The position numbers and the translations under genes are program-made. Below the pieces are notes generated by a model. It saw only the letters and a list, made by a program, of their open reading frames with translations. It did not search any database and was not told where the DNA came from. A stretch of 60,438 bases of DNA, taken from assembly GCA_964475125.1 (NCBI GenBank), contig CAYYWP010000004.1:1-60438 (forward strand), read 5' to 3'. This document shows positions 18,502 through 37,406 of this stretch, piece after piece (position 1 is the stretch's first letter; every line of letters begins with the position of its first letter). Source of the DNA: an uncultured Candidatus Binatia bacterium (GTDB lineage: Bacteria; Desulfobacterota; Binatia; HRBIN30; CADEER01).

Positions 18502-18544
18502 TGAACGGCAGGCAACCGCCCGCGGCGGATTCGAGAGGCCCGTC

Positions 18545-19708: not shown

Positions 19709-19795
19709 CCCGCATCGCGCCGCGAACCGCAGCGGTTGGGTTGCCCTAGTGTCCCGTCGCGGCGACGGGACACTAGCCCGTGAGTGATCTCTCCG

Positions 19796-21869: not shown

Positions 21870-23201
21870 GTGTTCGGTGTCGACATCCTGCTCATCGCAC
21901 TCGTCGTCGCGTCGCTCCCAGTGTGCATCTGGAGGCCGTGGATCGGCGTGCTGGTCTTCACCTGGCTCGGCTGCATGCACCCGCACCGGATCGTCGGCGG
22001 GCTGGCGGACGACCTGCCGTTGTCCAGGCTGGTCGCGCTGGCGACGTTGCTCGGCCTGCTGTTCACCAGACAGCGTTACGCGCTGCCGCGACGGCGCGAG
22101 CTCTACCTGCTGGGCGGGTTGTGGCTGACGTTCCTGGCCTCGACGATGCTGACCGCCCTCGAGCCGCAACGGGCCTGGAGCGACTTCGTCGAGGTCTCCA
22201 AGATCATGGTGATGGCAGGTGTGACCATGGTCTTGTTCCAGGACCGCGCCAAGCTGCACGCCCTGCTCCTGGTCATCGCGCTGTCCATCGGCATCGTCGG
22301 TATCGGCGGCGGCCTGTGGGGCTTCTACACCGGTTTTCACGCCCCGCTCTTCGGACCACCCCACTCGAATATTTCCGACAACAACGGGCTCGGATTCGTG
22401 CTGGTCGTGGTCCTGCCCCTGCTCGCCTACGTCCGTCAAGCGGAGGAACGCGCGCCGCTCCGCGCGCTGCTGCTGATCGCCTTCGGCCTGTCGATCATCG
22501 CCCTATTCGCCACCTATTCGCGCGGTGCCTTCGTCGGCTTCTGCCTCGTCTTGGCGCTCATCGCCGTGCAGATCCGGACCAAGGACCTGGCCCTGTTGGG
22601 CACTGGGCTCGCGGCCTGCCTGGTGTTCTATCTCTTCGCTCCGCAACAATGGGTCGAGCGGATCGAAACGATCACGCCGACGGCGTACCGCACGGATCCC
22701 TCCGGCGTGAAGCGGATGAAGTCGTGGTACGTCGCCCTGCGCCTCGGCGCCGACCATCCCTTCCTCGGCGCCGGTTTTCGCCCCTTCTCGCCCGCCGTGT
22801 ACCAGCGCTATCTCGCCGGCTACTCGGACGACCATGACGCACACAGCCATTTCCTGCAGGTCTTCGCCGAGCACGGGTTGATCGGGTTGGGGCTGTTCGT
22901 CGCGCTCCTGGTGTCGGTCCTGCTCCGTCTCTGGCGTCTGGCACGCCTGACCCGCGGCGACCCCCACCGCGAATGGATCGGCCGCTGCGCGCAGTCGGTC
23001 GGCGTCGCCGTGATCGCCTATGTCGCCGGAGGGATGTTCATCAACCTGCCGTACTTCGACCTCTACTATGAACTCGTGGCGGTGGTGGTCATCCTGCAGG
23101 AAATCGCCACCTCCGCGGACGGCCGCGCCTGCGCTCCACTCGACGAGGGCTGGGTTACGGCGGTGATCCGGCGCGCCCAGGGCATCACGCGGCAGGCGTA
23201 G
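21870..23201 (+). CDS. O-antigen ligase / Wzy-like polytopic membrane protein (exosortase-A-locus type)
   Basis: GTG start. MFGVDILLIALVVASLPVCIWRPWIGVLVFTWLGCMHPHRIV matches the conserved N-terminus of the PEP-CTERM-associated O-glycosylation ligase family. HSHFLQVFAEHG lies in the Wzy_C-type loop. Confidence 0.85.
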   Translation: MFGVDILLIALVVASLPVCIWRPWIGVLVFTWLGCMHPHRIVGGLADDLPLSRLVALATLLGLLFTRQRYALPRRRELYLLGGLWLTFLASTMLTALEPQRAWSDFVEVSKIMVMAGVTMVLFQDRAKLHALLLVIALSIGIVGIGGGLWGFYTGFHAPLFGPPHSNISDNNGLGFVLVVVLPLLAYVRQAEERAPLRALLLIAFGLSIIALFATYSRGAFVGFCLVLALIAVQIRTKDLALLGTGLAACLVFYLFAPQQWVERIETITPTAYRTDPSGVKRMKSWYVALRLGADHPFLGAGFRPFSPAVYQRYLAGYSDDHDAHSHFLQVFAEHGLIGLGLFVALLVSVLLRLWRLARLTRGDPHREWIGRCAQSVGVAVIAYVAGGMFINLPYFDLYYELVAVVVILQEIATSADGRACAPLDEGWVTAVIRRAQGITRQA

Positions 23202-23239
23202 CGCCCTGCAACGCCCTGGTTCTCGACCCGCGGCCCGGC

Positions 23240-25081
23240 TCAGCCTGAAGGCGGCGGCGCACTCTCGACGAGCTCAAACGAAGTCAGATAGAGCCCCTCT
23301 ACGCTCCGCTGCGCCGTGCGCCGAACGCCGTGCGTTCTCAGCTCGCCAACCTCGACCGGGCTGAGGCTGGCAAAGGTAAAGCGCCTGACGCCGGTGGCCG
23401 TGGCCAACTGAATCCAGCGTGCGGTGTGTGCGCGGTCCGCGACGAAGAACATCTCGCGCTCGGCGTAGGCCACTGCGACGGCGGATGGAAGCCACCAGAC
23501 GTCGGTGACGATGACCTCCTCGGCCCGCAGGGCAGCATCCCAGGTCGACAGCGCCTCCCGGGTGGTGTGCAGCATGGTCAGGCCGCGGATCTCCAGTCCC
23601 ACGCCGACGACCATCATCGCCGCGACGGCGAGGCTGAAGACTCGTCTCAGCCAGAGCGGGCGCTCCGATCTCCCGTAGCTCCGCAGGCCCGCCAGCATCG
23701 CGATCGACAACAGCGGATAGAGGACCAACAGCAGCCGTTGTCCCCACTCCATTCCGGCCTCGAGTTTGCCATTCCAGAGATACGACATCGCGATCGCGAA
23801 TGCGCCGATGACGAGATAGCCGAGCGACACATTCGCCAACGCCATCGGGACATAGCGGCGCTCCCGCCACGCCTCCCGCAAGGCGTATGGCCACACGATC
23901 AGAAACGGCGCGACGGGGAACAGACCGTGCAGGGCGCGATAATTCTGCGCGGTGCACAAGAGAAAAAGGCTGAAGCCGAGCATGACGACGCAGCCGGAGA
24001 GGACCAAGGCTGCCTCGATGCGCGTAGACCTTGCGAAGGCGGCGACCCAACACGACAGCAGCGCGAGCGCCACCGCGACCGCGAGCCCGTCGCCAACGAC
24101 TGCGCCCTCGCTCACCTGGCTGTGAACCAAGACCTCGACGAGGCCACCGGGATGCTCCAGGAGCCCAGTTGCAGCCGTTTCGATCCGCGCCGGTACGGAC
24201 GCCAGGAGGTTGCGGTGGCGCAGCGTCAGTGACGCCTGGAGAACGAAGAGCAAGCCGGCGGTCAGTCCGGCGAGCAGCAGGGGAAGGGCAACGCGCCGGA
24301 GCGGCCTCGACGCCGGCCGGCTGCTCGGCGGCGCCGTGGGCCGCGGGCGGGCGGCGAGGCTGGAGACACCCCAGCCCGAGAAAACGGCCACCGCAAGCGC
24401 CGACATCTCGAAGCGCAGGATCCACGCCGCCGTCAGGGCGGCGGCGGCCGCCAACACGGCGGCCGGGCGCCAACGCGGCGAGGCGGTGACGACGTAGACG
24501 GCGAGCAGCGCCAGGAAACCCGCCGCGCTGTGCTCCCAGAAGACCATGCCGTAGAACCACACCGGCGTGGCCAGGCCCACCAGGAGCACGGCGAAGGGCG
24601 CCCAGCGCGGGTCTATGCGCGCCATCAGCATCCCGCTCACGATGGCGATGCCCCAGGCGCTCAAGAGCGGGAGCAGGTACAGGCCGGTCAGACCGAACCA
24701 TCGCAGCGGCACGCGGTTGACCAGCGGGAAGAGGACGGGGGTTTGGAACGGGAGGTAGGTACTGCCGTCATCGGCGACCACCGGAGGAGGGAAAATCACC
24801 GGGGGCGGAAGAAATTCGAAGCCGGGATCGATGCGCCGGGCCGGGAACGGCACCTCGTAGCGGACGTCGCCGGCCCAGTTCACGCTGACACTGCGCAGCT
24901 CCAGGTAATTGGCACCCTCATCGGGCATCCAGAACACATGCTTCGGCAGGACGCTCAGACTCACGGCGTAGATCGCCAGCACGGCGAGCGCCGCCAGAAG
25001 GGTCCACCCGTGGCCTCGGATCCGCGTCACGCCTCTCCAGGGGGCGGGCGCCTGGCCCAGAGGCGCTGGCCTTCCCGGCAA
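23240..25081 (-). CDS. Large polytopic membrane protein, GT-C-like candidate glycosyltransferase (family not recognised)
   Basis: 613 codons with at least 10 hydrophobic helices. Early-loop acidic motif FWMPDEGANYLEL. C-terminal approx 100-aa soluble region. Co-oriented with the SGNH hydrolase gene upstream. Confidence 0.55.
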   Translation of the reverse strand: MPGRPAPLGQAPAPWRGVTRIRGHGWTLLAALAVLAIYAVSLSVLPKHVFWMPDEGANYLELRSVSVNWAGDVRYEVPFPARRIDPGFEFLPPPVIFPPPVVADDGSTYLPFQTPVLFPLVNRVPLRWFGLTGLYLLPLLSAWGIAIVSGMLMARIDPRWAPFAVLLVGLATPVWFYGMVFWEHSAAGFLALLAVYVVTASPRWRPAAVLAAAAALTAAWILRFEMSALAVAVFSGWGVSSLAARPRPTAPPSSRPASRPLRRVALPLLLAGLTAGLLFVLQASLTLRHRNLLASVPARIETAATGLLEHPGGLVEVLVHSQVSEGAVVGDGLAVAVALALLSCWVAAFARSTRIEAALVLSGCVVMLGFSLFLLCTAQNYRALHGLFPVAPFLIVWPYALREAWRERRYVPMALANVSLGYLVIGAFAIAMSYLWNGKLEAGMEWGQRLLLVLYPLLSIAMLAGLRSYGRSERPLWLRRVFSLAVAAMMVVGVGLEIRGLTMLHTTREALSTWDAALRAEEVIVTDVWWLPSAVAVAYAEREMFFVADRAHTARWIQLATATGVRRFTFASLSPVEVGELRTHGVRRTAQRSVEGLYLTSFELVESAPPPSG

Positions 25082-25203
25082 GCGCCTTCAACCAGGCCAC
25101 GCATGGCGGAGGTCATGGCAGCATCGCGGCGAGCGAGCAAGATCCACTGACTTGCCGGCAGCGAGCGGCCGGCGCGGCGCCACGCAGCCGAGAGGTATCG
25201 CCG

Positions 25204-26286
25204 CTATCGGCCAGCGCGCGCAGACACCAGCTCCCGAAACGGCGGCGCGTCGAGAAGCGCCTGGCTCACGCGCGCCGCCATGGCGCGGCTTCCGGTATCG
25301 CGAAAGTGCACGGAGTCGTTGTAGTGCACGTCATCCGCCGGGATTTGCTCCTCGCCACCGATGAGCACGGCTCCAGTTTCGGCGGCCACCGACCGGATGA
25401 CGCGATTGTACTCCTCGTAGCCGGCTACCAGTCCGTCGAGGGTCATGTACGGCATGTAATACAACGAGGTGACGGCCGCCTGCTTTCGCTCCGCGACCGA
25501 CTGGCCGCGCCGGATGCGGGGCGAAAAGGTCACGACCGCAACCACTTCGGCGACCTCTTGGGCTGCGTGGATGGTGTTGCGCAGCCGTTGCTCGAAGCCG
25601 CGTGACAGCTCGCGTGGGTCGAAGACGAGCTTTCCAGCGTCGCTCTCAGCAGTGGCCTGGAGGCGTCGGATCGACAGGTTCATGTCGACGAGGAACCACA
25701 ACAGGGAATATCGCGCCAGCCCGCCGGCCTGCGTCGGCACGTCAGGGATGAGCTGCCGGTCCCGCGCCAGCCGACGGCTGTCCAGGGAGAGGTCATTGGT
25801 CGCTTCGTAGATCACGACGACGTCGGGCTCCAAGCGCTGGACCCGCAGCGTGAAGGTGCGCAGAATCGCCTCCAGGCCGTAGCCCGGGACGCCGGTGTTC
25901 ACGTAGTCGAACTGGACGTCCGGAAGCGCTTCCTCGAGGGATGCCCAGACCAGATGTGGCCAGGTCACCTCGTTGCCGCCGACCTCTGCACAGAAAGTGG
26001 TTGATCCGCCGAGAAAGGCCAGGCGAACCACCCCGGGCGGCTTTGGCATCACCAGCTCCGGGCCGCGGAATCCGAGTGAATTGACGCGGATCTTGCCGTG
26101 AACGCGATTCGGAATGAGAACGCGCAAGCCGGTCTCGGGATCGATCGCGAGCGCCTCGTCGATCGGACTTGCGGTGCCGTGTCTCACCCATTGCCGGAAT
26201 CTGACCGCACCTTCGGCGAGCAGCGCGCTCGCAGCGCCGAGGGCGAGGAGGGCGGCGACCATGCGGAGCACACGCCCCGGCTTCAT
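25204..26286 (-). CDS. SGNH/GDSL-family hydrolase or acyltransferase with N-terminal membrane anchor
   Basis: Signal/anchor MVAALLALGAASALLA. Block I-like LAFLGGSTTF, block III-like IYEATNDL, block V-like DSVHFRDTG. Confidence 0.65.
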   Translation of the reverse strand: MKPGRVLRMVAALLALGAASALLAEGAVRFRQWVRHGTASPIDEALAIDPETGLRVLIPNRVHGKIRVNSLGFRGPELVMPKPPGVVRLAFLGGSTTFCAEVGGNEVTWPHLVWASLEEALPDVQFDYVNTGVPGYGLEAILRTFTLRVQRLEPDVVVIYEATNDLSLDSRRLARDRQLIPDVPTQAGGLARYSLLWFLVDMNLSIRRLQATAESDAGKLVFDPRELSRGFEQRLRNTIHAAQEVAEVVAVVTFSPRIRRGQSVAERKQAAVTSLYYMPYMTLDGLVAGYEEYNRVIRSVAAETGAVLIGGEEQIPADDVHYNDSVHFRDTGSRAMAARVSQALLDAPPFRELVSARAGR

Positions 26287-26435
26287 CGGCAGCGCCTCCG
26301 GGAGCGGGCCGCTGACCGACGGGGCATCGCCGGATGTTTGCCGCTGCGCGCGTCTCGCCAGTAGCCAACCACGAAGGATATGCTACGGGTGACGGACGAA
26401 ACGGTCCAGGACGGGGACGAGATCGAGGGAGCAGT

Positions 26436-27218
26436 GTGAGCAGTACGGCAGGTTCGTCCGAGGCGGGCATCGCGCAGGTGCTGCGCCTCAAATACGGGGA
26501 CCCGCCGACGGGCTGGGGCCCGCTGCTGCACCAGCGCTTCGGCTACCGGACACCCGATGACCTGTACGAGGCCGCGGTGGCAGAGCTGGTGACTCCGGGC
26601 TGCGCGTGGGCCGACATCGGCTGCGGCCATGAGCTGTTCCCGAGCAACCGAGCCCTCGCGCGCCTGCTTGCCGCCCGCGCCGGCCTGCTCGTCGGCGTCG
26701 ACCCCGACGCGACCATCGAGGAGAACCCCTACGTCCATCGCAAGGTGCGTGTGACGCTCGCGGACTTCCAGCCGGACCGGTCCTTCGACCTCGTGACGCT
26801 GCGCATGGTGGCCGAACACCTCGCCGACCCGGAGGCGGCGGCCGCGGCGCTGGGGCGTATCGTGCGGCGGGGCGGCACCGTACTCATCTACACGGTCAAC
26901 CGCTGGGCGCCGGTCTCGCTCGCGGCGAAGTGCGTGCCCTTCCGCTTGCACCAGCCGATCAAGCAGGTGCTCTGGGGCACGCAGGAGCAGGACACCTTCC
27001 CCACCTACTTCCGCATGAACACGCGGCGGCAGCTGCGTGCGCTGCTCGACCGCCACGGCCTCCGCGAGGTCTCCTTCCGCTACCTCGATGACTGCCGCAC
27101 GCTGCAGCGCATCCGCTTGCTCGCCCGCCTCGAGCTGATCACCTGGCGCGTCCTGCACGCCGTCGGCCTGCCCTACCCCGAGACCTGCCTGCTCGGCACC
27201 TATCGGAAGGGGACGTAG
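26436..27218 (+). CDS. Class I SAM-dependent methyltransferase
   Basis: Start placed at GTG 26436, 5-6 nt after GAGGGA. Motif I-like WADIGCGHE. VAEHLADP post-motif II block. Confidence 0.65.
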   Translation: MSSTAGSSEAGIAQVLRLKYGDPPTGWGPLLHQRFGYRTPDDLYEAAVAELVTPGCAWADIGCGHELFPSNRALARLLAARAGLLVGVDPDATIEENPYVHRKVRVTLADFQPDRSFDLVTLRMVAEHLADPEAAAAALGRIVRRGGTVLIYTVNRWAPVSLAAKCVPFRLHQPIKQVLWGTQEQDTFPTYFRMNTRRQLRALLDRHGLREVSFRYLDDCRTLQRIRLLARLELITWRVLHAVGLPYPETCLLGTYRKGT

Positions 27219-27328
27219 TTTCAAGTGTTCCGAGTTACCCCCCACGGGCCCCAATGCGGCCATTCCGGGGAGGGGGTCGGCCATGACGGAACGCTCGGAA
27301 GCCATCCTTGATCTGACAAAACCTCAAC

Positions 27329-27540
27329 GCAGAGACCCAGAGTACGCAGAGGACCCGGAGGCTGCGTGCATGAGTTCGAGCGCTGACTCATGGTCATCGT
27401 CAATTGGGTCTGGGGGTCAATCTCTCGCAGGATGCTGAACAACCCGCCGCTCACCCTTCGACGGGCTCAGGGTGAGCGGAACCGCGGGTTTTTCAGCATC
27501 CTGCTCGACCCTCGTACTCCGCGTTCTCTGCGGTCTCCGC
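27329..27540. repeat. Composite nested palindromic element: outer family C arms, inner 76-nt palindrome carrying a family A hairpin
   Basis: The outer arms are 27329..27355 (gcagagacccagagtacgcagaggacc) and 27510..27540 (ccctcgtactccgcgttctctgcggtctccg), in inverted orientation. The inner palindrome is 27428..27503 (caggatgctgaa..aacccgc..gctcaccct / agggtgagc..gcgggtt..ttcagcatcctg), with core hairpin 27449..27477. Confidence 0.75.
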
Positions 27541-27670
27541 GCCTCGGCTTCGAATTTCTCTTGTCCGATCAAGGCTATGTCCCGCATGCTTTGCTTGTCT
27601 TCACCCGTGCCGGGCGGCATTCTGGCGCCGTGCCTGGGGGGGAGCAGTGTAACCGTCTCGCCGGGCGGCG

Positions 27671-29059
27671 TTGCGGATTCCCGTCGAACGCCGGGGCGGA
27701 GGCCTGCTCACGCTCGTGACCACGCCAGACTGGATCGGTCTCTTCGCCTCGCGCCGCGCCCGGGTGGGGGTGCTCGGCCTCGGCTATGTCGGCCTGCCGC
27801 TGGCGGTGACGATCGCGGAGGCGGGGTTTGCCACCCTCGGCTTCGATACCGACGGTGAAAAGATCGCCATGCTCGAGCGTGGCGAGTCGTACATCCGCCA
27901 CGTGCCGAGCGATCGGTTGGGTGCTGTCCTCGGCACTCGGCCGCCGGCGAACGCTGATGCCGCCGGGCTGTATCCGAGCCGGGAATGGGGGGACCTGCGG
28001 GCATGCGACGTCGTCGTGCTCTGCGTGCCGACGCCGCTGACCGCAAACCGGGAGCCCGACTTGTCGTATGTCGTCGGCACGACGGAAACCGTCGCGGCCC
28101 ACCTGCGTCCGGGTCAGCTCGTGACGCTCGAGAGCACGACCTATCCAGGCACGACGGAGGAGGTGCTGCGCCCGATTCTCGAGCGCAGCGGGCTGCGCGC
28201 CGGGCGCGACTTCCACCTCGCCTTCTCGCCCGAGCGCGAGGATCCGAACAACCCCGCCTTCACCATCCGCACGATCCCCAAGCTCGTCGGCGGCGTCACG
28301 CCGGAATGCGGCCGCGTCGCGGCGGCCTTCTACGGCGCCGTGGTCGAGCACGTGGTCCCGCTCTCGAGCGCCGCCGCCGCCGAAGCGGCCAAGCTGCTGG
28401 AGAACATCTATCGCAGCGTCAACATCGCGCTCGTCAACGAGCTCAAGGTGCTCTTCGAGCGCATGGGGCTCGACACGTGGGAGGTCATCGACGCCGCCGC
28501 CACCAAGCCGTTCGGCTTCACCCCCTTCTACCCGGGCCCCGGCCTGGGCGGGCACTGCATCCCGATCGATCCATTCTATCTGACCTGGCGGGCACGGCAG
28601 TTCGATCTCAGCACGCGCTTCATCGAGCTCGCCGGCGAGATCAACGTCGGCATGCCGAGCTACGTGATCGAACGCCTGGTCGGTGCCCTGAACGAGCGCG
28701 GGCGCGCCCTCAAGGGCGCCAAGATTCTCATCCTCGGCGTTGCCTACAAGCGCGATGTCGAGGACGACCGCGAATCACCGGCGGTGAAGCTGATCGAGAT
28801 CCTCCGCCACAAGCACGCCGAGGTGAGCTATCACGATCCGTTCGTCGCAGTGCTCAAGCCCGGCCGTCGCCACAACCTCGGCCTGCGTTCGGTGCCGCTG
28901 ACCGCGGCGACGCTTGCCGCGGTCGACGCGGTGGTCATCGCCACGGACCACAGCGGCGTCGACTACGAGCTCGTCGTGCGCCATGCCGCGTTGGTGGTGG
29001 ACGCCCGCAACGCCACCCGCAACGTGCGTACGGCGCGGGACAAGATCGTCCGCGCCTGA
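27671..29059 (+). CDS. UDP-sugar 6-dehydrogenase of the UDP-glucose/GDP-mannose dehydrogenase family; probably UDP-N-acetyl-D-mannosamine dehydrogenase (WecC-like), given wecB in the island
   Basis: VGVLGLGYVGLPLAVTIAEAG Rossmann opening, CVPTPL, the catalytic-Cys block GPGLGGHCIPIDP, and ILGVAYKRDVEDDRESPA. The start may be an internal GTG. Confidence 0.85.
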   Translation: MRIPVERRGGGLLTLVTTPDWIGLFASRRARVGVLGLGYVGLPLAVTIAEAGFATLGFDTDGEKIAMLERGESYIRHVPSDRLGAVLGTRPPANADAAGLYPSREWGDLRACDVVVLCVPTPLTANREPDLSYVVGTTETVAAHLRPGQLVTLESTTYPGTTEEVLRPILERSGLRAGRDFHLAFSPEREDPNNPAFTIRTIPKLVGGVTPECGRVAAAFYGAVVEHVVPLSSAAAAEAAKLLENIYRSVNIALVNELKVLFERMGLDTWEVIDAAATKPFGFTPFYPGPGLGGHCIPIDPFYLTWRARQFDLSTRFIELAGEINVGMPSYVIERLVGALNERGRALKGAKILILGVAYKRDVEDDRESPAVKLIEILRHKHAEVSYHDPFVAVLKPGRRHNLGLRSVPLTAATLAAVDAVVIATDHSGVDYELVVRHAALVVDARNATRNVRTARDKIVRA

Positions 29060-29086
29060 TGAACTGCCGCGAGTACGTCGGCGGCG

Positions 29087-30643
29087 TTGCTGGTCGAGAC
29101 CGGATGCCGAGCCGTCGACGACCATGACGCAAGACGACGCGCGAGTCTGGAGCGCCCGGCGTTGAGCGCGGTCTCTGCGAGCCCCCGCGACCGACGGGCG
29201 CACGGCTACCGCGACGCGGCGTGGAGTGTACTGGCCGCGGCGCTGCCCTTCCTGGTTTTCCTGCGCACGATGGCGCCGACGGTCTACGGCCTCGACAGCG
29301 CCGAGCTCAGCACCGGCGCGTATGCGCTCGGCATCGTGCACGCCCCGGGCAGCCCGACCTACATGCTGCTCGGCCATCTCTTCTCCCGCTTGCCGATCGG
29401 CGACGTGGGCTACCGCTTGAACCTCATGTCGGCGGTCGCGGCGGCGCTCGCCGCGCTCTTCCTGTTCCGCGTCCTGATGCGCCTCACCGGCGAGCGAGCC
29501 CTGGCCCTCGCGGGCAGTTGGTTTACCGCCTTCACCTACTACTTCTGGGTGAGCGCGCTGGCGGCGGAGCTGTACGCGCTGCATGCCGCATTCGTCGCCG
29601 GTCTGCTGCTGTTGGCGCTGCGCTGGCGCGAAGAGGCCCGTGCGTCCTCGCTCTGCCTGCTGGCGCTGCTGTTCGGCATCGGCGCCGGCAATCACATCGC
29701 CATGGTCCTGCTTCTCCCCGGCTTCGCCTGGCTCGCCGCAACCGGGCGCGCGGTGCCGTGGCGCCCGCTCTGGCTGGCGTCGGCGGCGGTCGCCTGCGGC
29801 CTCGTCGGTGCCGCCGTCTATCTGTATCTGCCTCTGCGCTACCTGTCGGACACGCCACTCAACTATGCGCGTACGTATTGGCACGTCGACCTCACCACCG
29901 CCGAGGGCTTGCGCTGGATGGTCACGGCGCGCCTGTTCAAGTCTTCGCTCTTCGGGGTGCTGGCGGCGGACCTGCCCGGCGAAGTGGCCACCTACCTGCG
30001 GCGGCTGTGGAGCAACTTCGCCGGCCTCGGTGTGTTGCTCGGCCTATTGGGCCTCATCGGGGACTTTCGCCGCCGGCCTTCGCTGCACATCGGCCTCGGG
30101 CTTCTCTTCGCGGCCCACCTCGCCTTCTATCTGTGCTACCGGGTCGGCGACAAGGAGCTCATGCTGTTGCCCACCTATTTGGTCTGGGCCGTATGGGCCG
30201 CGCTGGGGGCGCGAACGCTCTGTCGCCTCCTCGATCCATGGCTCGCCCCGCGCTGGTCGATCCCTGCCGCGGCGCTGCTGTTGGCCTTGGCGGCGGCGTG
30301 TCTGGTTGAGAACTTCGACCGCGTCGACCTCAGCCGCGACTGGTCGGCCCGACAGCGCGGGGAACGCATCCTCGCCAGCCTCGAGCCCGGCGCCGTCTAC
30401 CTCGGGACGTGGGCCGACGTGCCGATTCTCGAATACCTGCAGATCGTCGAGCGCGTTCGACCCGACGTGCGCACGGTGAACCTGTTCTTCACGCCCGGGC
30501 AGGGCGCGAGTATCGCCGGCGAGATGCTGCGCGGCCGCCGAGCCGTCTACACATCGGCGCCGCGTGTCCTCGCCGGCAGCGGACTCGGCCTCGATCCGGT
30601 GGCGGCATGCGGCTGCTACCGGGTATACCCGGCGGCCTCATAG
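29087..30643 (+). CDS. DUF2723-family polytopic membrane protein (TMEM260-type, GT-C fold; named GT117 in some annotations)
   Basis: FLVFLRTMAPTVYGLDSAELSTGAYALGIVHAPGSPTYMLLGHLF is the characteristic DUF2723 opening. About 11 TM segments, then a soluble C-terminal domain. Confidence 0.75.
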   Translation: MLVETGCRAVDDHDARRRASLERPALSAVSASPRDRRAHGYRDAAWSVLAAALPFLVFLRTMAPTVYGLDSAELSTGAYALGIVHAPGSPTYMLLGHLFSRLPIGDVGYRLNLMSAVAAALAALFLFRVLMRLTGERALALAGSWFTAFTYYFWVSALAAELYALHAAFVAGLLLLALRWREEARASSLCLLALLFGIGAGNHIAMVLLLPGFAWLAATGRAVPWRPLWLASAAVACGLVGAAVYLYLPLRYLSDTPLNYARTYWHVDLTTAEGLRWMVTARLFKSSLFGVLAADLPGEVATYLRRLWSNFAGLGVLLGLLGLIGDFRRRPSLHIGLGLLFAAHLAFYLCYRVGDKELMLLPTYLVWAVWAALGARTLCRLLDPWLAPRWSIPAAALLLALAAACLVENFDRVDLSRDWSARQRGERILASLEPGAVYLGTWADVPILEYLQIVERVRPDVRTVNLFFTPGQGASIAGEMLRGRRAVYTSAPRVLAGSGLGLDPVAACGCYRVYPAAS

Positions 30644-30787
30644 ACCGCGCCGGCGGTCCCGGGAGCGACTCGGCCGCCATTTTGGAAGGGTGACAGCGGG
30701 TTACTCGGGTGCCATCGGCCTCGCCATCTGGTGCTGGATCCGGCCGAGACACGCCTCGGGGACGTGAAGTTTTTACCTTGATCAGAC

Positions 30788-30814
30788 TGGACAGGCGCGC
30801 CGCGTGAGTATAAG
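30788..30814 (+). promoter_or_regulatory. Candidate sigma70-like promoter for the small Cys-rich protein gene
   Basis: TGGACA (30788..30793) and TATAAG (30809..30814) in an unusually AT-rich patch. The spacer is only 15 nt, so this is weak. Confidence 0.25.
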
Positions 30815-30841
30815 AGCAGGCGGCGGACTGTAGGAGAGAGA

Positions 30842-31282
30842 GTGTTGCTTTCTGCAGTGGCCATGCATGGCCGAGGATCACTGCTCGCGGCTGCGATCGT
30901 GGCCGTGAACTTCGCTCTGGCGCTCGATCTCACCGGCCTTTCTTATGGCCGCTACCAGTGGACTGCCTACGCCCTGATCGCCTACACACCGACCAATACA
31001 CCGACCAACACACCGACCGCGACGCCCACCAATACACCAATCCCGATCGGCGGGAGCTGTACGGCTGGAACGGAGTGCACCTCGACGTTCTGTGTCGACG
31101 GTGTGTGTTGCAACGAGATCTGCGACCAGCCGGGCGAGTTCTGCAACCTCCCGGGGAACGCGGGTACCTGCTCGATGCCCACGGCCCCCGCACCGACGCT
31201 GCGTGGTCCGTGGCTGGCGGTGACGGTGCTGCTGCTCGCCGCCATCGCGCTCTTCGCTTTACGCGCGCGACGAACCCGTTAG
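30842..31282 (+). CDS. Small secreted Cys-rich protein with a TPTN-repeat linker and a C-terminal TM-plus-basic tail (sorting-signal-like)
   Basis: GTG 30842 follows GGAGAG; the alternative ATG 30863 gives MHGRGSLLAAAIVAVNFALA. The linker is TPTNTPTNTPTATPTNTPIP. The 8-Cys module is CTAGTECTSTFCVDGVCCNEICDQPGEFCNLPGNAGTC. The tail is PTAPAPTLRGPWLAVTVLLLAAIALFALRARRTR. Confidence 0.6.
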   Translation: MLLSAVAMHGRGSLLAAAIVAVNFALALDLTGLSYGRYQWTAYALIAYTPTNTPTNTPTATPTNTPIPIGGSCTAGTECTSTFCVDGVCCNEICDQPGEFCNLPGNAGTCSMPTAPAPTLRGPWLAVTVLLLAAIALFALRARRTR

Positions 31283-31442
31283 CACCCCGAGGTTCCACCT
31301 CGCAGACCTGGCCGCGGGTGTCACTCGGTCCGATCGAGGGGGCGTGCCGTCGGACGGGCAGACGCAAGCGTCGCCGGGTGACAGGCATGTGCACGGTGCC
31401 TCGCACGACACCTGATTGCGTCGGCGTGCGAATGCACTCGCC

Positions 31443-32639
31443 GTGAAGATCCTGCACGTTCTCAATCACTCGCTGCCCCATGTCGACGGCTACAGCGTGC
31501 GCAGCGCCAACGTCTTGCGGCTGCAGTGCGAGGATGGGCTCACTCCGATAGCCCTGACCTCACCGCGACAGGAACCGGTCTCTTCCGTCGCTTCGGAGCG
31601 CATAGACGGCATCCTGCACTACCGTACCGCGCCGCCCCGGGCGGCGCCGCCGGCCGTGCGGCCGCTGCTCGACGCCAAGACCGTGTACCAGCGCATCGCG
31701 GCGGTCCTGCGCTGCGAGCAGCCGAGCGTGATCCACGCCCACTCCCCGAGCCCGTGGGGCGCCGCGGCGGCGGTTGCGGCGCGACGCCACCGGCTGCCGT
31801 TCGTCTACGAAGTGCGCGGCTGTTGGGAGGACGCCGCGGTCGACGCCGGCACGACGCGGCCCGCATCCGTACGCTACCGCCTGACGCGGGCGCTGGAGAC
31901 CTGGGTGTTGCGCCGCGCCGCGGCGGTCACGACGATCTGCGCTGGACTGGCATATGAGATCTCAGCCCGCGGGATTTCGAGCCCGAAGCTCTTCCTGACC
32001 CCGAACGGCGTCGACGGCGAGCGCTTCGCCCCGCTGCCGCGCGACGCCGCGCTGGCCGCCCGCCTCCAGCTGCCTCCCGATGGCCCCACCGTAGGGTTCG
32101 TCGGCTCGCTGCTCGCCTGCGAGGGCGTCGAGGACCTCGTGGCGTCCGTGCCGGTGATCATGCGGCGTGTCCCAGGCGTGCATGTCATCGTCGCGGGAGT
32201 TGGGCCACGCCTCGACCCGGTGCGCATGCTGCAACAGCGGCTGCCGCAACCGGATCGGGTCCATATCGTGGGCGCCGTGCCGGCCAGCGAGGTGCGGCGC
32301 TACTACTCCCTGCTCGACGTCGTGATCTATCCGCGCCGGCCGACCCGTCAGACCGAGATGGTGACACCGCTGAAACCGCTGGAAGCGATGGCGATGCAGA
32401 AAGCCGTGTTGGTCGCCGACGTCGGCGGGCTGCGGGAACTGGTCGATGCGGCCGTCGGGGCCACGTTCCGCGCCGGCGACGTGGAACACCTGGCCGAGCA
32501 GTGTATCGCGCTGCTCTCTGACCCAGCCCGCCGCGCCGAGCTGGGACGCGAGGCGCGCCGGCACGTCCTGGCGACGCGCTCCTGGCGTCGGCTGGCGCCG
32601 ATCTACCGCGCCGCCTACGCGGCGGCGAGCGATCGCTGA
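31443..32639 (+). CDS. GT4 glycosyltransferase of the PEP-CTERM/exosortase-A-associated type (Daro_2409-like)
   Basis: GTG 31443 gives VKILHVLNHSLPHVDGYSVRSANVLRLQ..., matching that family's opening. C-terminal GT-B block EMVTPLKPLEAMAMQKAVLVADVGG. Confidence 0.8.
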   Translation: MKILHVLNHSLPHVDGYSVRSANVLRLQCEDGLTPIALTSPRQEPVSSVASERIDGILHYRTAPPRAAPPAVRPLLDAKTVYQRIAAVLRCEQPSVIHAHSPSPWGAAAAVAARRHRLPFVYEVRGCWEDAAVDAGTTRPASVRYRLTRALETWVLRRAAAVTTICAGLAYEISARGISSPKLFLTPNGVDGERFAPLPRDAALAARLQLPPDGPTVGFVGSLLACEGVEDLVASVPVIMRRVPGVHVIVAGVGPRLDPVRMLQQRLPQPDRVHIVGAVPASEVRRYYSLLDVVIYPRRPTRQTEMVTPLKPLEAMAMQKAVLVADVGGLRELVDAAVGATFRAGDVEHLAEQCIALLSDPARRAELGREARRHVLATRSWRRLAPIYRAAYAAASDR

Positions 32640-32679
32640 CCGTCGAGCAACCGAATCTCGCCACGCCTTGACTGCGTTC

Positions 32680-33795
32680 TCATCGCGTCCCGCGCTCGTG
32701 CCGGCTCGGTGACGCGCTGACCATCTCGACGAGGATCCCCACCCCCGCCCCGGCGTGGATCGTCACGATGGCCGCGAGCAGCCAGGGCAGCAGGCGCCAA
32801 CCGCACCGTCGCGCCAACCAGATCGCCTGCACGGCGACGACGCCGAGGTACAGCCCAGCGCCGAGGGCGTACGCCGCGGCAAGAGCGTTCGACAGCGCAA
32901 GCAGCGGCAGCGTCGCGATGGCGCTCAGCACGAGGAGCGCGGGCAGGAACGTCGCGAGCGCAAACGTGCCGGGATGGCGGCGCAGCAGGCGCAGGCGCCC
33001 GCGCCCGTAGCGCACTTGCTGGCGGAAGAGCGCCCGCAGGCTGGTGCGGGCGTAGTAGGGCGTCGACAGCTCCGACGTGTAATAGCAACGGAAGCCACTC
33101 CGTGCGACGCGGAGGCTGAACTCCAGGTCCTGACAGGCGTCGAACGATTCGTCGAAACCGCCGACGCGCTCGAAGACGGCGCGGCGATAAGCCACGGCGG
33201 CGGGGTGGGGTGAGACGAAGCCGGACTCGGCCGCGTAAGTGACCGAGGCTGGGTGGCGACCCAGAGCAGAGGCTCGCGCCGCGACGACGGCCAGCTGGAT
33301 CTGGTCGCCCGACTCACTCGTGAGCGGCTGCGGGTAGCCGACACAGTCGGCGCCGGTGCGCTCGAAAACCTCGGCCAGCCGCGACAGGAACTGCCGGTCG
33401 TGCACGTCGGTGTGCCCGTCGACGATGGCCACGATGTCGCCGCGACACGCGGCGATACCGGCATTGTGTCCCGCGCTCGCCCAGCGCTTCGGATTGTGCA
33501 GGAGGCGTACGCGCCGCTCGCGTTGCGCCACCGCCGCGGCGATCGCGGCGGTGGCATCGGTCGACTGCCCGTCGACGACGAGCACCTCGAAGCGGTCGGG
33601 CGGATAGTCCTGATGCAGCAGCCCGTCCAGCGTCGCCGCCAAGTAGCGCGCTTCGTTCCACACCGCGATGATCACGGACACGAACGGCCGCGCCACGACG
33701 TTCGCCTTCGCACCGACCTCGGCAGGCGCTCCAACAGTCCCGAGTCCAGGCAAGGGGTCCGCATCTGCCTGCAGGTTGATCCGCGTCGGGTCCAC
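32680..33795 (-). CDS. GT2-family glycosyltransferase with C-terminal transmembrane helices
   Basis: VSVIIAVWNEARYLAATLDGLLHQDYPPDRFEVLVVDGQSTD. The C-terminal approx 100 aa are hydrophobic. Confidence 0.85.
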   Translation of the reverse strand: MDPTRINLQADADPLPGLGTVGAPAEVGAKANVVARPFVSVIIAVWNEARYLAATLDGLLHQDYPPDRFEVLVVDGQSTDATAAIAAAVAQRERRVRLLHNPKRWASAGHNAGIAACRGDIVAIVDGHTDVHDRQFLSRLAEVFERTGADCVGYPQPLTSESGDQIQLAVVAARASALGRHPASVTYAAESGFVSPHPAAVAYRRAVFERVGGFDESFDACQDLEFSLRVARSGFRCYYTSELSTPYYARTSLRALFRQQVRYGRGRLRLLRRHPGTFALATFLPALLVLSAIATLPLLALSNALAAAYALGAGLYLGVVAVQAIWLARRCGWRLLPWLLAAIVTIHAGAGVGILVEMVSASPSRHERGTR

Positions 33796-34096
33796 TCCGG
33801 CCGCTTCTCGTCGTCGCCCTGTTATCCGCGGTGGGTGGGAAGATCAAACCTCGCCGGCGGCTGCAGGGGCGACCTCGAGCGCCGCGTGGCGCGCCGCAGC
33901 CGCGGGGACAGGCGTGACGTTTCAGGCGCTGCGCCGGTGGTCAGCGGTCGGTCTTCGACGCGCCGGCGGCGTCTGGTTTCAGCCTGGGCGGCCGCGGTCG
34001 CCGCCAGCTCGGCGAGCCGTGCGCAGCCGCCGCGCTTCGGCGGCGCGGTAGAGAAGTCGGCACGGTCACGGTAGAAGCTCAGGCGACGGGCTGGCC

Positions 34097-35428
34097 ATGG
34101 AGGTGCACTCGGAGCGGCGGAATGACCCGCCACCCCCTGCCGCCGATCGGCACCGTGCCGCCGCTCGGCGGCGGGTGCTGATCGTTACCCTCTATTACGC
34201 TCCCGGCAACACCAGTGGCAGCCTGCGCATGGTCAAGTTGACCAAGTATCTGGCGCGCTACGGTTGGGACGCCAGCGTGCTGACGGCGCCGACCGCGCGC
34301 TACGCGACGACCGACCCCGCTCTCCTGCTCGAGCTGCCGCGCAGCACGCGCATCTATCGCGCCCCGTGCTGGGATGCGCGGGTGGCGTTCGGCGTGCGCG
34401 GAAAGTACCCGGCCCTCGTCGAAGTGCCCGACCGCTACATCTCCTGGCTGCCGGGTGGCGTGTGGACCGCGCTGCGTGTCATGCGCGCCGATCGAGTCAG
34501 CGCCGTGCTGTCCACCAGCCCGGTCCCCACGGCCCATCTCATCGGGCGCATCGTCACGGCGCTCCGCCGCACGCCGTGGATCGCCGACTTCCGCGATCCG
34601 TGGCCATATGCGGAGCACCGGACGCGGCTGCGCCGCGGAGTCGAACGACGCTTGGAAGCGCTCGTGCTCCGCCACGCCGACCGCGTCCTCGCCAGCACGC
34701 CGGAGATTCTCGCTGCCCTCACCGCAGACGAGCCGCGGGTGGAACCGAAGGGCCAGGTGCTGTACAACGGCTACGACGAGGACGACATCGGCAGCGCCGA
34801 TGCGTCGGCCGATGCGGAGAGCGACTTCGTGCTCTTGCACGCCGGGCTGCTGCATCGAGACTATCGCAACCCCCGCGCCCTGCTGATCGCGGTGCAACGC
34901 TGTCTGCAGCGGGGGGGGCTGCCGCCGAGCACCCGGGTGAACCTGATGGCCGGCGGCGAGGATGGCATGGCCGCACTGGTCGAGGATCTGCGCCTCACCC
35001 TCGGCCTCGCCGACCGCGTGCACATCGGTGGGCGTCTGCCGCATCGACAGTCCGTCGCCGCCATGTCGGCAGCCTCGGTCCTGGTGCTGCTGCAGGGCGA
35101 GCGCATGCTGCCGCAAATTCCCGCCAAGGCCTTCGAGTATCTGCGCAGCGGACGGCCCATCCTGGCACTGGCGCCGGCGCACAGCGCCACGGCGCAGTTC
35201 GTACGCGGATTCGCGGGGGTCTACCTCGCCGCTCCAGATGATGTCGCGGCGATCGAACAGCGACTCGGAGAGATCGCCGACGCCTGGCGCGGTGGCCTGC
35301 GCCTCTTCGATCGGCGCGACGCCGTGCGGCGCTTCACCCGCGAAGCCGCGGCGCGCGAGTTGGCGGAGATGCTCACCGCGGTCAGCGGCGAGGTGAACGG
35401 CGCGCCGCTTGCCCGCCGAACGGTATGA
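34097..35428 (+). CDS. GT-B fold glycosyltransferase (GT4-like)
   Basis: RVLIVTLYYAPGNTSGSLRMVKLTKYLARYGWD opening. C-terminal KAFEYLRSGRPILALAP block. Confidence 0.7.
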   Translation: MEVHSERRNDPPPPAADRHRAAARRRVLIVTLYYAPGNTSGSLRMVKLTKYLARYGWDASVLTAPTARYATTDPALLLELPRSTRIYRAPCWDARVAFGVRGKYPALVEVPDRYISWLPGGVWTALRVMRADRVSAVLSTSPVPTAHLIGRIVTALRRTPWIADFRDPWPYAEHRTRLRRGVERRLEALVLRHADRVLASTPEILAALTADEPRVEPKGQVLYNGYDEDDIGSADASADAESDFVLLHAGLLHRDYRNPRALLIAVQRCLQRGGLPPSTRVNLMAGGEDGMAALVEDLRLTLGLADRVHIGGRLPHRQSVAAMSAASVLVLLQGERMLPQIPAKAFEYLRSGRPILALAPAHSATAQFVRGFAGVYLAAPDDVAAIEQRLGEIADAWRGGLRLFDRRDAVRRFTREAAARELAEMLTAVSGEVNGAPLARRTV

Positions 35429-36570
35429 CCATGCCATCGGGCCCGGCCGATACGGCGCCGGTGGCAGCGGTGCCGGCGGGCCGCGTCGATGTGAGCATTC
35501 ACGTGGTCGAACAACCCGATGCACAGGTACACGGACAGGTGCGTGCGTTTCTCGCCGCTGCGCCGGCCGGCTCGATCGCCTTCGCCGAGCACGATCCGGG
35601 CTGGTTGGACGTCCTCGCGGCGGGCCTTAGGCATCGTCCATACGCCGTCATCGCGCGGCGCGAGGGAGAGACGGCGGGGGAGGGGATCGTCGGCTATCTG
35701 CCGTTGGCCCTGACCACCAGCCGCATCTTCGGCCGCTTTCTGGTCAGCCTGCCGTACCTGGATCGGGCCGGGATCGTCGCCGCGGATTCGACCGTCGCCG
35801 CCGCGCTCATCGACGCCGCCGTTCGCCTTGCCGCAGCAGTGGACGCCGACTACCTCGAGCTGCGGCAGGAACGCGTACACGTACACCCGGCGCTGACGGC
35901 GCAGCGATCCGACAAGGCGCGCCTGGTGCTGGGGCTGCCGGCGACGGCCGACAACTTGTGGCAGCAGGTCGGTAGCAAGGTGCGCAATCAGGTGCGCAAG
36001 GGCGAACGAAACGCGCTGACGGTTCACTGGGGCGGCGCGGAGCTGGTCGACGAGTTCTACACCGTATTCGCCGCCACCATGCGCGACCTCGGCACGCCGG
36101 TGTTTTCTCGGCGGCTTTTCGATCAGCTTCTGGAGCGCTTTGCGACCGCAGCCGAGCTCGCTGTGGTGCGACATCGCGGACGCCCGCTGGCCGCGGCGCT
36201 GCTCATCCACACCCGCGGCGGCGGTCTCACGCCACAGACACACGTCCCCTCTGCGGCCAGCCTGCGGCGGGCGCGCAGCATGAACGCCAACATGTGGATG
36301 TACTATCAGCTCCTGGTGCGCGCCATCGAGCGCGGCAGTCATCTGTTCGACTTCGGGCGTTCCACCGTCGACTCGCCGACCTACCGTTTCAAGCAGCAGT
36401 GGGGCGCGCACGCGCAACCGACGGTCTGGCAGTACCACGTGCGCCGCGGCACCATCGACGCCGCGCGCCCACACGACCCGCGTTTCGCACTGGCGCGTGC
36501 GCTGTGGCGTCGCTTGCCGGTCGCGGTCACGCGGTGGCTCGGTCCGCCCCTCGCCCGCGGCCTCCCCTGA
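35425..36570 (+). CDS. FemAB-family protein, PEP-CTERM-system-associated type
   Basis: ATGA overlap at 35425. GYLPLALTTSRIFGRFLVSLPYLDRAGIVA...DYLELRQ...MRDLGTPVFSRRLF...MWMYYQLLVRAIERGSHLFDFGRS are family blocks. Confidence 0.8.
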   Translation: MTMPSGPADTAPVAAVPAGRVDVSIHVVEQPDAQVHGQVRAFLAAAPAGSIAFAEHDPGWLDVLAAGLRHRPYAVIARREGETAGEGIVGYLPLALTTSRIFGRFLVSLPYLDRAGIVAADSTVAAALIDAAVRLAAAVDADYLELRQERVHVHPALTAQRSDKARLVLGLPATADNLWQQVGSKVRNQVRKGERNALTVHWGGAELVDEFYTVFAATMRDLGTPVFSRRLFDQLLERFATAAELAVVRHRGRPLAAALLIHTRGGGLTPQTHVPSAASLRRARSMNANMWMYYQLLVRAIERGSHLFDFGRSTVDSPTYRFKQQWGAHAQPTVWQYHVRRGTIDAARPHDPRFALARALWRRLPVAVTRWLGPPLARGLP

Positions 36571-36586
36571 GGGCCGCGGCGCCTCG

Positions 36587-37213
36587 TCAGGCCAGGTGCC
36601 GGTGCGGTGTATCCATCACCGTCACCTCGAAGTAGGGCTTGGAAGAACCGCGGACTTGAACTGCGGCACCGAGCTCGGCCTGCCAGCGCCGTGCGGCGGC
36701 GCGCTCTTCGTCCCGACCAGCATCATCGAGGAGGATGACGCAGCCCGGCCCGAGCCGTTCCTGCATGATCGGGACCAGGCCGTATCGCCCTCCTTTGGTG
36801 TCGGCGGGAGGGCCATCACAGATGACCACGGAGAAACTGTCGGGCATCGCTGCCAAGGGGGCGTCGTACCAACAATAGGGACCATGGTCGCTGAGAGGAT
36901 CCGTGCACAGGACGACGCGATCGAGCTGGTACCTCTTCAGACATCGCTGCACTTTGGCGGCCCACTCCGGTTTGTGCTCGAGCGCCCAGTGGCTTCGGCC
37001 GCGCTTGGTCGCGATCGCCCCAACCAAGATCGTGGACAGCCCGGAGCCGCATTCCAATATCGGCCCGCGCGCGGTCAGCGCGTGCTGCAGGCACGCGGCG
37101 AGGTACTCGTCCTGAGCACTCCAAGCCTCATTCCCCCACCCGTAGATCAAATCGATCAGGACGGGGTGTCCAGGATGGGAACAGGCGGCGGGATCTCGCA
37201 GGAACCGCGTCAT
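36587..37213 (-). CDS. Putative class I methyltransferase-fold protein
   Basis: ATG 37213 gives MTRFLRDP...LIYGWGNEAWSA...ILECGSGLSTILVG (motif I-like)...VVICDGPP. The longer track ORF runs antisense through the RHH gene and is rejected. A GTG at 37282 is an alternative start. Confidence 0.5.
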   Translation of the reverse strand: MTRFLRDPAACSHPGHPVLIDLIYGWGNEAWSAQDEYLAACLQHALTARGPILECGSGLSTILVGAIATKRGRSHWALEHKPEWAAKVQRCLKRYQLDRVVLCTDPLSDHGPYCWYDAPLAAMPDSFSVVICDGPPADTKGGRYGLVPIMQERLGPGCVILLDDAGRDEERAAARRWQAELGAAVQVRGSSKPYFEVTVMDTPHRHLA

Positions 37214-37406
37214 GGCTCGCGAGAAAACGAACTGGCGGTGTGCCGTCCGAAGAAGCCGTCGAATTCGAAAGAGTGATTTCACCTCTTTGAGAATGCGGCA
37301 AACCGCGTGATCTTGTCGATCGTCGGGCGTCGGCGCTCTGCGGCGCCATCTCCGCCAGGGCGCGGTGTGTCTTGCGGTGCCGTCGCAGCGTATTACACGA
37401 TGGATC

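Follow-up and report, generated by a model that had tools for sequence, protein, structure and literature searches.

An N-terminal protein tag that travels with a TMEM260-type glycosyltransferase gene in uncultured Binatia and Chloroflexota

How does a membrane-bound glycosyltransferase find its acceptor protein when the domain known to recruit acceptors in its family is absent? This question is raised by a locus of an uncultured Candidatus Binatia bacterium (contig CAYYWP010000004.1), of which a stretch of 60,438 nucleotides (nt) with a G+C content of 68.9%, hereafter called the window, was analysed. On its forward strand lies a gene for a TMEM260/DUF2723-type glycosyltransferase of the C class (GT-C) (29087..30643, hereafter the enzyme), followed by a small gene of 146 codons (30842..31282, the partner). 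The human enzyme is the only TMEM260 whose biochemistry has been elucidated, and no client is known for the bacterial homologues. A sequence-only reading of the window had proposed that the enzyme O-glycosylates the Thr/Pro repeats of its small neighbour, and possibly those of a giant lipoprotein encoded further along. This proposal survives in part: the enzyme is genuine and its pairing with the partner is conserved, while the Thr/Pro-repeat link and the role given to the lipoprotein were not supported. The element co-inherited with the enzyme is an N-terminal tag and not the Thr/Pro repeat. Behind this tag come passengers of quite different kinds, and a third gene, for another membrane protein of about 600 amino acids (aa), often completes the cassette. 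In what follows, loci and database proteins are cited by our own handles (L and P numbers).

A conserved gene pair

The link between the enzyme and partner genes is real, and it is confined to one enzyme subfamily. The sequence-only reading had staked its proposal on the two genes being neighbours in other genomes, and so they are: all 18 distinct loci, the window included, have an enzyme orthologue next to a relative of the partner or at a distance of one gene, in four arrangements (partner then enzyme, enzyme then partner, convergent, or with one gene between them). Searches that started from the partner were positive in all eight loci, and those that started from the enzyme in all nine informative ones. 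Six partner orthologues are found on contigs long enough to judge, each with a PF11028 gene beside it, in one case at a one-gene distance, and for two further tag proteins, recovered by an exhaustive profile search, a DUF2723 gene comes first, with 10 or 28 nt between the genes. When the species representatives of GTDB were scanned with the enzyme, seven loci were obtained at 52% identity or above, all from metagenome-assembled genomes (MAGs) of Candidatus Binatia or “Deltaproteobacteria”; the small gene is adjacent in all five that are informative, and the other two contigs end at the enzyme. Likewise, four enzyme relatives from a protein search (48–56% identity), one of them from an Anaerolineae MAG, have a related partner gene adjacent or one gene away. 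Two more distant DUF2723 proteins have no tag gene beside them, one in L014 (Armatimonadota, 32% identity, 729 aa) and one in L015 (Anaerolineae, 38%), which is why the pairing is regarded as specific to one enzyme subfamily.

Could such a neighbourhood simply have been inherited by descent, without any function behind the adjacency? Most of the loci do come from related uncultured lineages (Binatia). Yet gene order and orientation have been reshuffled in at least four ways with proximity kept, and the pairing reaches Anaerolineae-type genomes in which the enzymes are only 48% identical and the passengers are different, all of which makes inheritance alone very improbable. Found in uncultured Binatia as well as in Chloroflexota, the pairing of the enzyme with a tagged partner suggests a dedicated enzyme-client pair. 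One Candidatus Binatia MAG (JBOHWA01) has two enzyme copies on different contigs (L007 and L012), 63% and 68% identical to the window enzyme, and some genomes may hold more than one cassette.

Judged by its sequence, the enzyme is a true TMEM260-family glycosyltransferase with its catalytic residues intact, as its earlier assignment to DUF2723 had implied. Its longest open reading frame (ORF) codes for 518 aa, and the database gene call (P0093), which starts at 29162, for 493 aa. The Pfam family PF11028 (TMEM260-like) matches it with an E value of 6.7e-29 (101.4 bits against a cut-off of 24.2). A profile built from four orthologues has human TMEM260 (9rql, 9rqm and 9rqn) as its sole sequence relative in the PDB (E 1.4e-19); positions 22–438 of its 496 are aligned with TMEM260 chain residues 31–464, and the homology covers both the GT-C membrane module and the luminal Rossmann-like palm.

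The activity of human TMEM260 is that of a protein O-mannosyltransferase (PMC10214176), in agreement with the sequence-only reading. According to cryo-electron microscopy and mutagenesis, its D52 and H67 hold the donor dolichyl-phosphate mannose, R264 and Y267 bind the phosphate and the sugar, and D441 of the palm is the catalytic base beside the acceptor Thr; activity is abolished when D52, H67, R264 or D441 is mutated (bioRxiv 10.64898/2026.03.17.711096). The counterparts of D52, H67, R264, D441 and P443 in the window enzyme are D70, H85, R282 (one column off), D444 and P446, all invariant in the four orthologues. D70 is part of YGLDSAEL, and D444 and P446 are part of W-A-D-V-P. As for other TMEM260 residues, Y267 is aligned with F284, and R355 has its place inside an insertion. 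The palm motif D-V-P..L-E-Y-L-x-I-x-E-x2-R-P-D-V is kept between the human protein and the window enzyme.

The resemblance ends at the C-terminal side. TMEM260 recruits its extended acceptor peptide through fingers made of tetratricopeptide repeats (TPR), which carry an asparagine ladder (bioRxiv 10.64898/2026.03.17.711096). These fingers are absent from the enzyme: the Pfam scan returns no TPR family, the TMEM260 alignment stops at chain residue 464, and only 74 residues follow D444 before the C-terminus. Profile, homology, donor-site residues and palm base thus place the enzyme with TMEM260 on four counts, and it differs on two, the TPR fingers and the acceptor sequon of IPT domains described below; for this reason, it is classed as a divergent bacterial TMEM260/GT117 subfamily and not as an orthologue in function. 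Since the catalytic residues are kept and the TPR domain is absent, it would have the TMEM260-type catalytic machinery without the known acceptor-recruiting device.

A tag with exchangeable passengers

The partner gene is separated from the enzyme gene, which ends at 30643, by a spacer of 198 nt (30644..30841, + strand) that is richer in A and T than the window (64.6% G+C), all of which agrees with the anatomy drawn in the sequence-only reading. The promoter that it thought possible there was not recovered: neither a sigma-70-like promoter nor a terminator-like site nor an Rfam match was found in the spacer and its surroundings. An AGGAG ribosome-binding site is located 8 nt upstream of the GTG start of the partner. 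The G+C content at third codon positions (GC3) of the partner ORF is modest (0.76), yet the gene is real, since at least 17 full-length orthologues of this + strand ORF exist (E 1e-81 to 1e-26). An antisense ORF of 87 aa inside it (30982..31245, − strand) has a higher GC3 (0.81); a gene caller using composition only would choose the wrong strand here, and homologues favour the + strand.

The partner protein is made of an N-terminal tag (residues 1–48, 30842..30985), a Thr/Pro linker (residues 49–69, TPTNTPTNTPTATPTNTPIPI, 30986..31048), an 8-Cys knot (residues 70–110, 31049..31171) and a C-terminal tail (residues 113–146 and the stop codon, 31178..31282), all encoded on the + strand. Evidence for the tag comes from alignments and from hidden Markov model matches beside the enzyme in all loci, that for the linker from Tandem Repeats Finder (TRF) and AlphaFold2 (AF2), that for the knot from alignment and AF2, and that for the tail from sequence and an AF2 helix. 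The mature product described earlier, a linker followed by a knot and a tail, is indeed present, but the 48 residues that had implicitly been set aside as a signal peptide turned out to be the most conserved of all. Two blocks are conserved in the alignment of partner orthologues, the knot and these first 48 residues or so, and the tag is the most family-specific and conserved segment of the partner.

This tag opens with a basic N-terminus and continues as a membrane helix, in which Asn23 is invariant, and a juxtamembrane stretch, GLSY-GR-Y-Q-W-TA-Y...Y48. Its consensus after the helix is GL[S/A]Y-x2-[F/Y]-x-W-x2-[F/Y]-x4-Y, and N23, Y35 and W40 are invariant. Because the tag is strongly conserved and no AxA cleavage site is conserved in it (the residues after the helix vary in the alignment, being ALA, VVL, LML, LVT or FVV), these features argue for an uncleaved signal anchor rather than a cleaved Sec signal peptide.

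The linker is encoded by a 12-nt tandem repeat in 4.4 copies (30986..31038, TRF). The knot follows the pattern G-G-x-C-x5-C-x-S-x-F-C-x-D-G-x-C-C-x3-C-x6-C-x8-C, and all eight of its cysteines (73, 79, 84, 89, 90, 94, 101 and 110) are invariant in 21 sequences. The tail contains PTAPAPTL, then a membrane helix, then RARRTR. In the AF2 model, a helix (3–31) is followed by a low-confidence loop (33–40), a disordered linker, the knot, with a predicted local distance difference test score (pLDDT) of about 90, and a second helix (122–145). Foldseek gives weak knottin-like matches to the knot in the PDB (spider toxins and a plant trypsin inhibitor, E 1.8–8 over 21–26 columns), and neither Pfam nor NCBIfam has a family for the partner or for its knot. 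The eight cysteines and the distribution of charges place the passenger outside the cytoplasm, on the same side as the active site of GT-C enzymes. One locus departs from this description (L006, 6302..7887): its partner has an Asp/Arg-rich linker and has lost one Cys of the knot, and its enzyme gene is cut to 301 aa, oddities that look like frameshift errors of long-read assembly and not like biology.

Which of these parts travels with the enzyme? It is the tag, because passengers are exchanged and the linker drops out while the tag stays. The T-rich linker varies in length and is absent from the partners of L003, L010 and L017, which are still found next to the enzyme or near it. All the enzyme-adjacent partners whose passenger is not a knot start with the tag: the passenger is an unrelated protein or domain of 230 aa in L019, belongs to a 396-aa CarboxypepD_reg/SdrD_B protein in L020 and to a 437-aa protein on the P0271 contig, and in L016 (7613..10186, Anaerolineae MAG GCA_023384415.1) the tag heads a multi-pass protein of 857 aa with two cupredoxin domains. 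The L016 protein also has an acidic DN/EN repeat and several further membrane helices, and it has no C-terminal tail. In an exhaustive search without word filter among 1.84 billion representative proteins, the tag profile found only 36 clusters at E<=1e-3, with lengths of 60–437 aa, and all of them except the weakest, repeat-like one are matched inside their first 90 residues or so. Of 59 tag proteins, 31 have the knot and 46 a C-terminal helix with a basic tail, the tail being missing from those of L016, P0262, P0265 and P0271. Among the 30 residues that follow the tag, 8 or more are Ser or Thr in 25 of the 59 proteins, and 3 or fewer in 20.

These counts bear directly on the idea of a generic O-glycosyltransferase for Thr/Pro repeats, which would serve the partner together with others such as the giant lipoprotein. 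The GT39 PMT enzymes of actinobacteria do mannosylate Thr/Pro-rich regions, and the window partner has a 21-residue Thr/Pro linker right after its tag. T-rich linkers are nevertheless limited to 25 of the 59 tag proteins, and the linkage with the enzyme survives both the loss of the linker (L003, L010, L017) and its replacement by acidic or other sequence (L016, L019). In addition, none of the untagged linker-knot-tail proteins (P0018–P0092) apparently shares a contig with the enzyme among the 120 matches listed, and four tagged ones do, which is a weak test. The same locus also encodes a 629-aa GT-C protein of the PMT_2 type (13370..15259, − strand, PMT_2 E 2.8e-9), which is an equally good candidate for generic glycosylation of Thr/Pro linkers. 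Taken together, this makes a generic Thr/Pro enzyme improbable.

The giant lipoprotein has no tag either, nothing was found that connects it with the enzyme, and generic T/P linkers could be served equally well by the PMT_2 enzyme. Its three T/P/A-rich linkers were found where the sequence-only reading had placed them, within an ORF of 1903 codons (44391..50102, + strand) that probably starts near 44691 (MRRVSGGRIGLLAALAALGLAAC, with a lipobox LAAC). In the N-terminal part of this ORF there are matches (E 4e-13 to 1e-11) to tandem-95 repeats and to the C-terminal region of M36 peptidases that depend on sortase, and no C-terminal sorting tail is present. Directly after it lies a 327-aa ORF (50394..51377, + strand) whose product has a Y1 transposase domain of the IS200-like type (PF01797, E 2e-10).

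The untagged relatives deserve a word of their own. In P0018–P0092, a T/P linker, an 8-Cys knot, APAPxL, a membrane helix and an Arg cluster form the end of many metagenomic proteins that are otherwise unrelated, CHRD and choice-of-anchor Q proteins among them; some are labelled Dormibacteraeota or Rhizomicrobium. This linker-knot-tail module is without coverage in Pfam or NCBIfam, and it may by itself serve widely for anchoring or sorting.

What the tag may do

We tentatively propose, with a little less than even confidence, that the enzyme and its partner form a dedicated pair in which the tag directs the glycosylation of the client. The enzyme would face the periplasm and take its sugar from a polyprenyl-phosphate carrier, and its acceptor would be recruited inside the membrane by the tag, in replacement of the lost TPR fingers. 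The tag, with its buried-Asn helix and its aromatic juxtamembrane motif, would remain uncleaved, dock on the enzyme and feed the emerging chain into the palm. In the window, this chain would be the Thr/Pro linker followed by the Cys knot, and O-glycosylation would take place there. The second GT-C protein may then extend the glycan, and the tail would either keep the product bound to the membrane or pass it on to a sortase-like step of the exopolysaccharide (EPS) system. A recognition tag fits better than a structural subunit, since conservation in the partner is limited to about 45 residues and the rest is freely exchanged. The motif at residues 33–40 is the most conserved part of the tag and yet the least confidently folded in the AF2 model, and it may for this reason be an extended segment that binds the enzyme. 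Its low order matches the use of extended peptides by TMEM260 (bioRxiv 10.64898/2026.03.17.711096).

Several observations weigh against this proposal. No Ser or Thr is invariant within the tag or after it, and the 20 of 59 members with at most three such residues in the 30 that follow the tag offer few acceptors. Either the acceptor site varies, then, or a universal acceptor would be an invariant aromatic residue, Tyr35, Tyr48 or Trp40. Ser34 was considered as a universal acceptor and rejected, for it is replaced by Ala in P0002, L016 and P0261, by His in P0255 and by Gly in P0271. TMEM260 itself modifies a sequon of IPT domains, P-x5-P-x3-G-P-x2-G/A-G-G-x2-T/S (bioRxiv 10.64898/2026.03.17.711096), and the partner has no IPT domain, no Pfam match and no such sequon. 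The Thr that follows the G-G before the knot was also rejected as a TMEM260-like acceptor: neither this Thr nor the partial P-x-G-G resemblance is conserved. Furthermore, none of the genes beside the pair was recognised as coding for a polyprenyl-phosphate sugar synthase. The GT2 enzyme encoded at 32680..33795 (− strand) was examined as one and discarded, its closest solved relatives being PcManGT (6yv7) and GalT1, and not GtrB or DPMS.

A last difficulty is that GT-C enzymes with small single-pass subunits are known. The partner might thus belong to a GT-C complex (TMEM260-like plus ArnT-like) as an accessory or scaffolding subunit, and this complex would act on EPS or on its lipid-linked precursor; the role of the tag helix would be to stabilise the enzyme or to regulate it, as Ost4 does with STT3 or PIG-X with PIG-M, and the passenger would serve some other periplasmic purpose. 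What is conserved in the partner, a membrane helix with a polar Asn and interfacial aromatic residues, is typical of helix-helix packing, and the want of an invariant hydroxyl residue speaks for a subunit too. The cassette is always found amid polysaccharide genes, often with the second GT-C gene adjacent, and partner and enzyme genes apparently stand in a ratio of about one to one within a locus. A subunit should nonetheless be conserved over its whole length, and beyond residue 48 or so the partner is exchangeable, from a knot of 40 residues to a multi-domain protein of 800. The enzyme also keeps the palm Asp, which in TMEM260 is the base for a peptide hydroxyl. On balance, a subunit role is unlikely, yet it is the alternative to be taken most seriously beside that of a tag-directed client.

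A second GT-C protein, the polysaccharide setting and known systems

The third member of the cassette is encoded by an ORF of 613 aa (23240..25081, − strand). Homologues of about 600 aa recur: their gene directly adjoins that of the enzyme in L008–L011, L013, L018 and L019, separates partner from enzyme in L017, and is not far off in L002 and L003. A gene of 590 aa without Pfam match, located between enzyme and partner on the P0014 contig, may encode the same protein, and eight database relatives of the family apparently share contigs with enzyme matches. Sequence comparison says little about its nature: ten members have no Pfam match, no sequence relative was found in the PDB, and an hhalign comparison with the TMEM260-like profile gives a probability of 0.4%; the NCBIfam model LA_3751/LA_3752, “putative glycosyltransferase,” is reached at E 9e-27, which is below its cut-off. 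Because Pfam, PDB sequences and hhalign are all negative, its GT-C identity was recognised only through structure prediction and Foldseek. The AF2 model has a pLDDT of 86 and a predicted template modelling score (pTM) of 0.87, and its top 11 Foldseek matches in the PDB are all GT-C enzymes, with ArnT (5f15) first at E 3.9e-6, and then ALG12, DPY19, PglB, AftA, AftD and ALG3. An ArnT-like GT-C fold is thus predicted with high confidence. In the motif F-W-x-P-D-E-G after helix 1, P-D is invariant, and F-W and E-G are nearly so. In a 10-sequence alignment all four residues P53-D54-E55-G56 of the first extracytoplasmic loop are invariant; in a set of 26 sequences D54 is without exception, and the conservation of E55 and G56 is 90% or more. 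The protein appears to represent an undescribed GT-C family.

Both GT-C genes and the partner lie within an EPS locus of the XrtA/PEP-CTERM type (about 10073..37633, on both strands), recognised by its Pfam and NCBIfam markers. Above cut-off are TIGR03006, a deacetylase (390 bits, cut-off 276), TIGR03097, a Wzy_C protein resembling an “O-glycosylation ligase” (355 bits, cut-off 188), and TIGR03019, which is FemAB-like (315 bits, cut-off 260); TIGR03108, TIGR03088 and TIGR04063 remain just under theirs. The locus also holds two AsnB-like amidotransferases (11380..13335 and 19784..21676), the Wzy_C gene (21870..23201), a UDP-sugar dehydrogenase (27671..29059) and GT4 enzymes, among them stp3 (31416..32639), together with the GT2 gene already mentioned, a UDP-GlcNAc 2-epimerase and a methyltransferase. 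Four polytopic enzymes that handle glycans can be counted in it, including the PMT_2 and Wzy_C proteins. The L018 locus is likewise of the XrtA/PEP-CTERM type, and that of L003 is a WbaP/Wzx/Wzy locus. No exosortase, sortase or rhombosortase gene was found among the window ORFs scanned, and a search of the literature on Binatia EPS returned nothing relevant.

The tail of the partner, with its short motif (APAPTL), its membrane helix and its terminal basic cluster, has the architecture of a sorting signal. It was compared with the curated PEP-CTERM, IPTL-CTERM, MYXO-CTERM and LPXTG models, none of which matches the window protein; the tails of its relatives stay below threshold, at 14.9 bits or less for IPTL-CTERM (cut-off 20.5) and 19.5 or less for midcut-by-XrtH (cut-off 45). 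Could the tagged protein then be a membrane primer or anchor that receives the polysaccharide of the locus en bloc, its tail being cut afterwards by an exosortase-type enzyme? The surroundings invite the idea: the cassette occurs in XrtA/PEP-CTERM-type loci (the window, L018) and in Wzx/Wzy loci elsewhere, 46 of the 59 tag proteins end in a helix and a basic cluster, and related tails do score, if weakly, against the IPTL-CTERM and XrtH-cut models. It agrees poorly with the rest, since no sorting model is reached at cut-off, the scanned window ORFs include no exosortase gene, and the tag proteins of L016, P0262, P0265 and P0271 have no tail at all. The known chemistry of the TMEM260 family is moreover the transfer of a single mannose from a monophosphate carrier (PMC10214176). 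Such a primer is accordingly quite improbable, a shade more so than the generic Thr/Pro enzyme.

Tag-directed glycosylation can also be stated in a broader form. The tag would address unrelated extracytoplasmic proteins to a TMEM260-type enzyme, recognition in the membrane would replace the TPR fingers, and the pair would work with a new GT-C family, the whole being a new system of protein glycosylation or of protein-polysaccharide coupling in exosortase-type EPS loci, whose acceptor could be an unconventional one, an invariant Tyr or Trp of the tag. This is possible, though we hold it more doubtful than the simple pairing of one enzyme with a tagged client. What would follow is easily said. 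The cassette offers one enzyme with one putative client, a pair that is directly testable. The way in which an acceptor is found by a GT-C enzyme that has no TPR domain could be explained by a short portable tag, and, if the tag alone suffices, targeted glycosylation in the periplasm could make use of it as a handle. Two further gains are an undescribed GT-C family and an additional component of the XrtA-type EPS loci, in which the glycosylation of surface proteins has been suspected and not assigned.

How does all this compare with what is already known? The nearest system is human TMEM260 itself (GT117), with which the window enzyme shares the GT-C module, the palm, the Asp and His of the donor site, the phosphate-binding Arg and the catalytic Asp-x-Pro of the palm. 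It differs in its length (518 aa instead of 707) and in its lack of TPR fingers, its partner has neither IPT domain nor sequon, and its gene stands beside those of a tagged partner and a second GT-C protein in a bacterial EPS locus.

The Pmt enzymes (GT39, such as Rv1002c) are GT-C proteins which, on the outer face of the membrane, transfer mannose from polyprenyl-phosphate mannose to exported proteins that are often Thr/Pro-rich. The modification of an exported protein by a GT-C enzyme outside the membrane, as proposed here, would be the same. To our knowledge, however, the Pmt enzymes belong to another family (PMT/PMT_2), have many substrates and no dedicated adjacent client, and do not rely on an N-terminal recognition tag; the PMT_2 gene at 13370..15259 is a separate member of this wider kind in the window.

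Closer in genetic layout are the pilin pairs of Pseudomonas, in which pilA and tfpO/pilO or tfpW are found together, the gene for a polytopic glycosyltransferase adjoining that of a single membrane-anchored client. Here too, a membrane glycosyltransferase is coupled with a putative client that has a conserved hydrophobic N-terminal segment. In contrast, the pilin enzymes are of the Wzy_C type or are another GT-C, the pilin leader is cleaved and methylated, and the window-type tag has another motif and passengers that vary.

With the PEP-CTERM/exosortase system, the cassette shares a short membrane-proximal tag on diverse proteins, a polytopic enzyme nearby and an EPS locus with XrtA markers. 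The tag is however N-terminal, the enzyme is a glycosyltransferase and not a transpeptidase, and the tail matches no curated model. As for STT3-Ost4 and PIG-M-PIG-X, they also associate a GT-C enzyme with a small protein whose conserved part amounts to about one membrane helix, but subunits of the Ost4 or PIG-X type are, as far as we know, conserved over their full length and lack passenger domains that can be exchanged.

Protein O-glycosylation by GT-C enzymes and gene pairs of enzyme and client (pilin with TfpO or TfpW) are thus already known. Mention of DUF2723 was found in the literature only for the human enzyme; the search returned no paper on a bacterial DUF2723 protein, in line with the earlier statement that no such enzyme had been paired with a substrate. 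Neither Pfam nor NCBIfam has a model for the tag or for the second GT-C protein. Set beside these known systems, what appear to be undescribed are the tag at the N-terminus, the strict association of this tag with a TMEM260-type enzyme, and the GT-C family that accompanies them.

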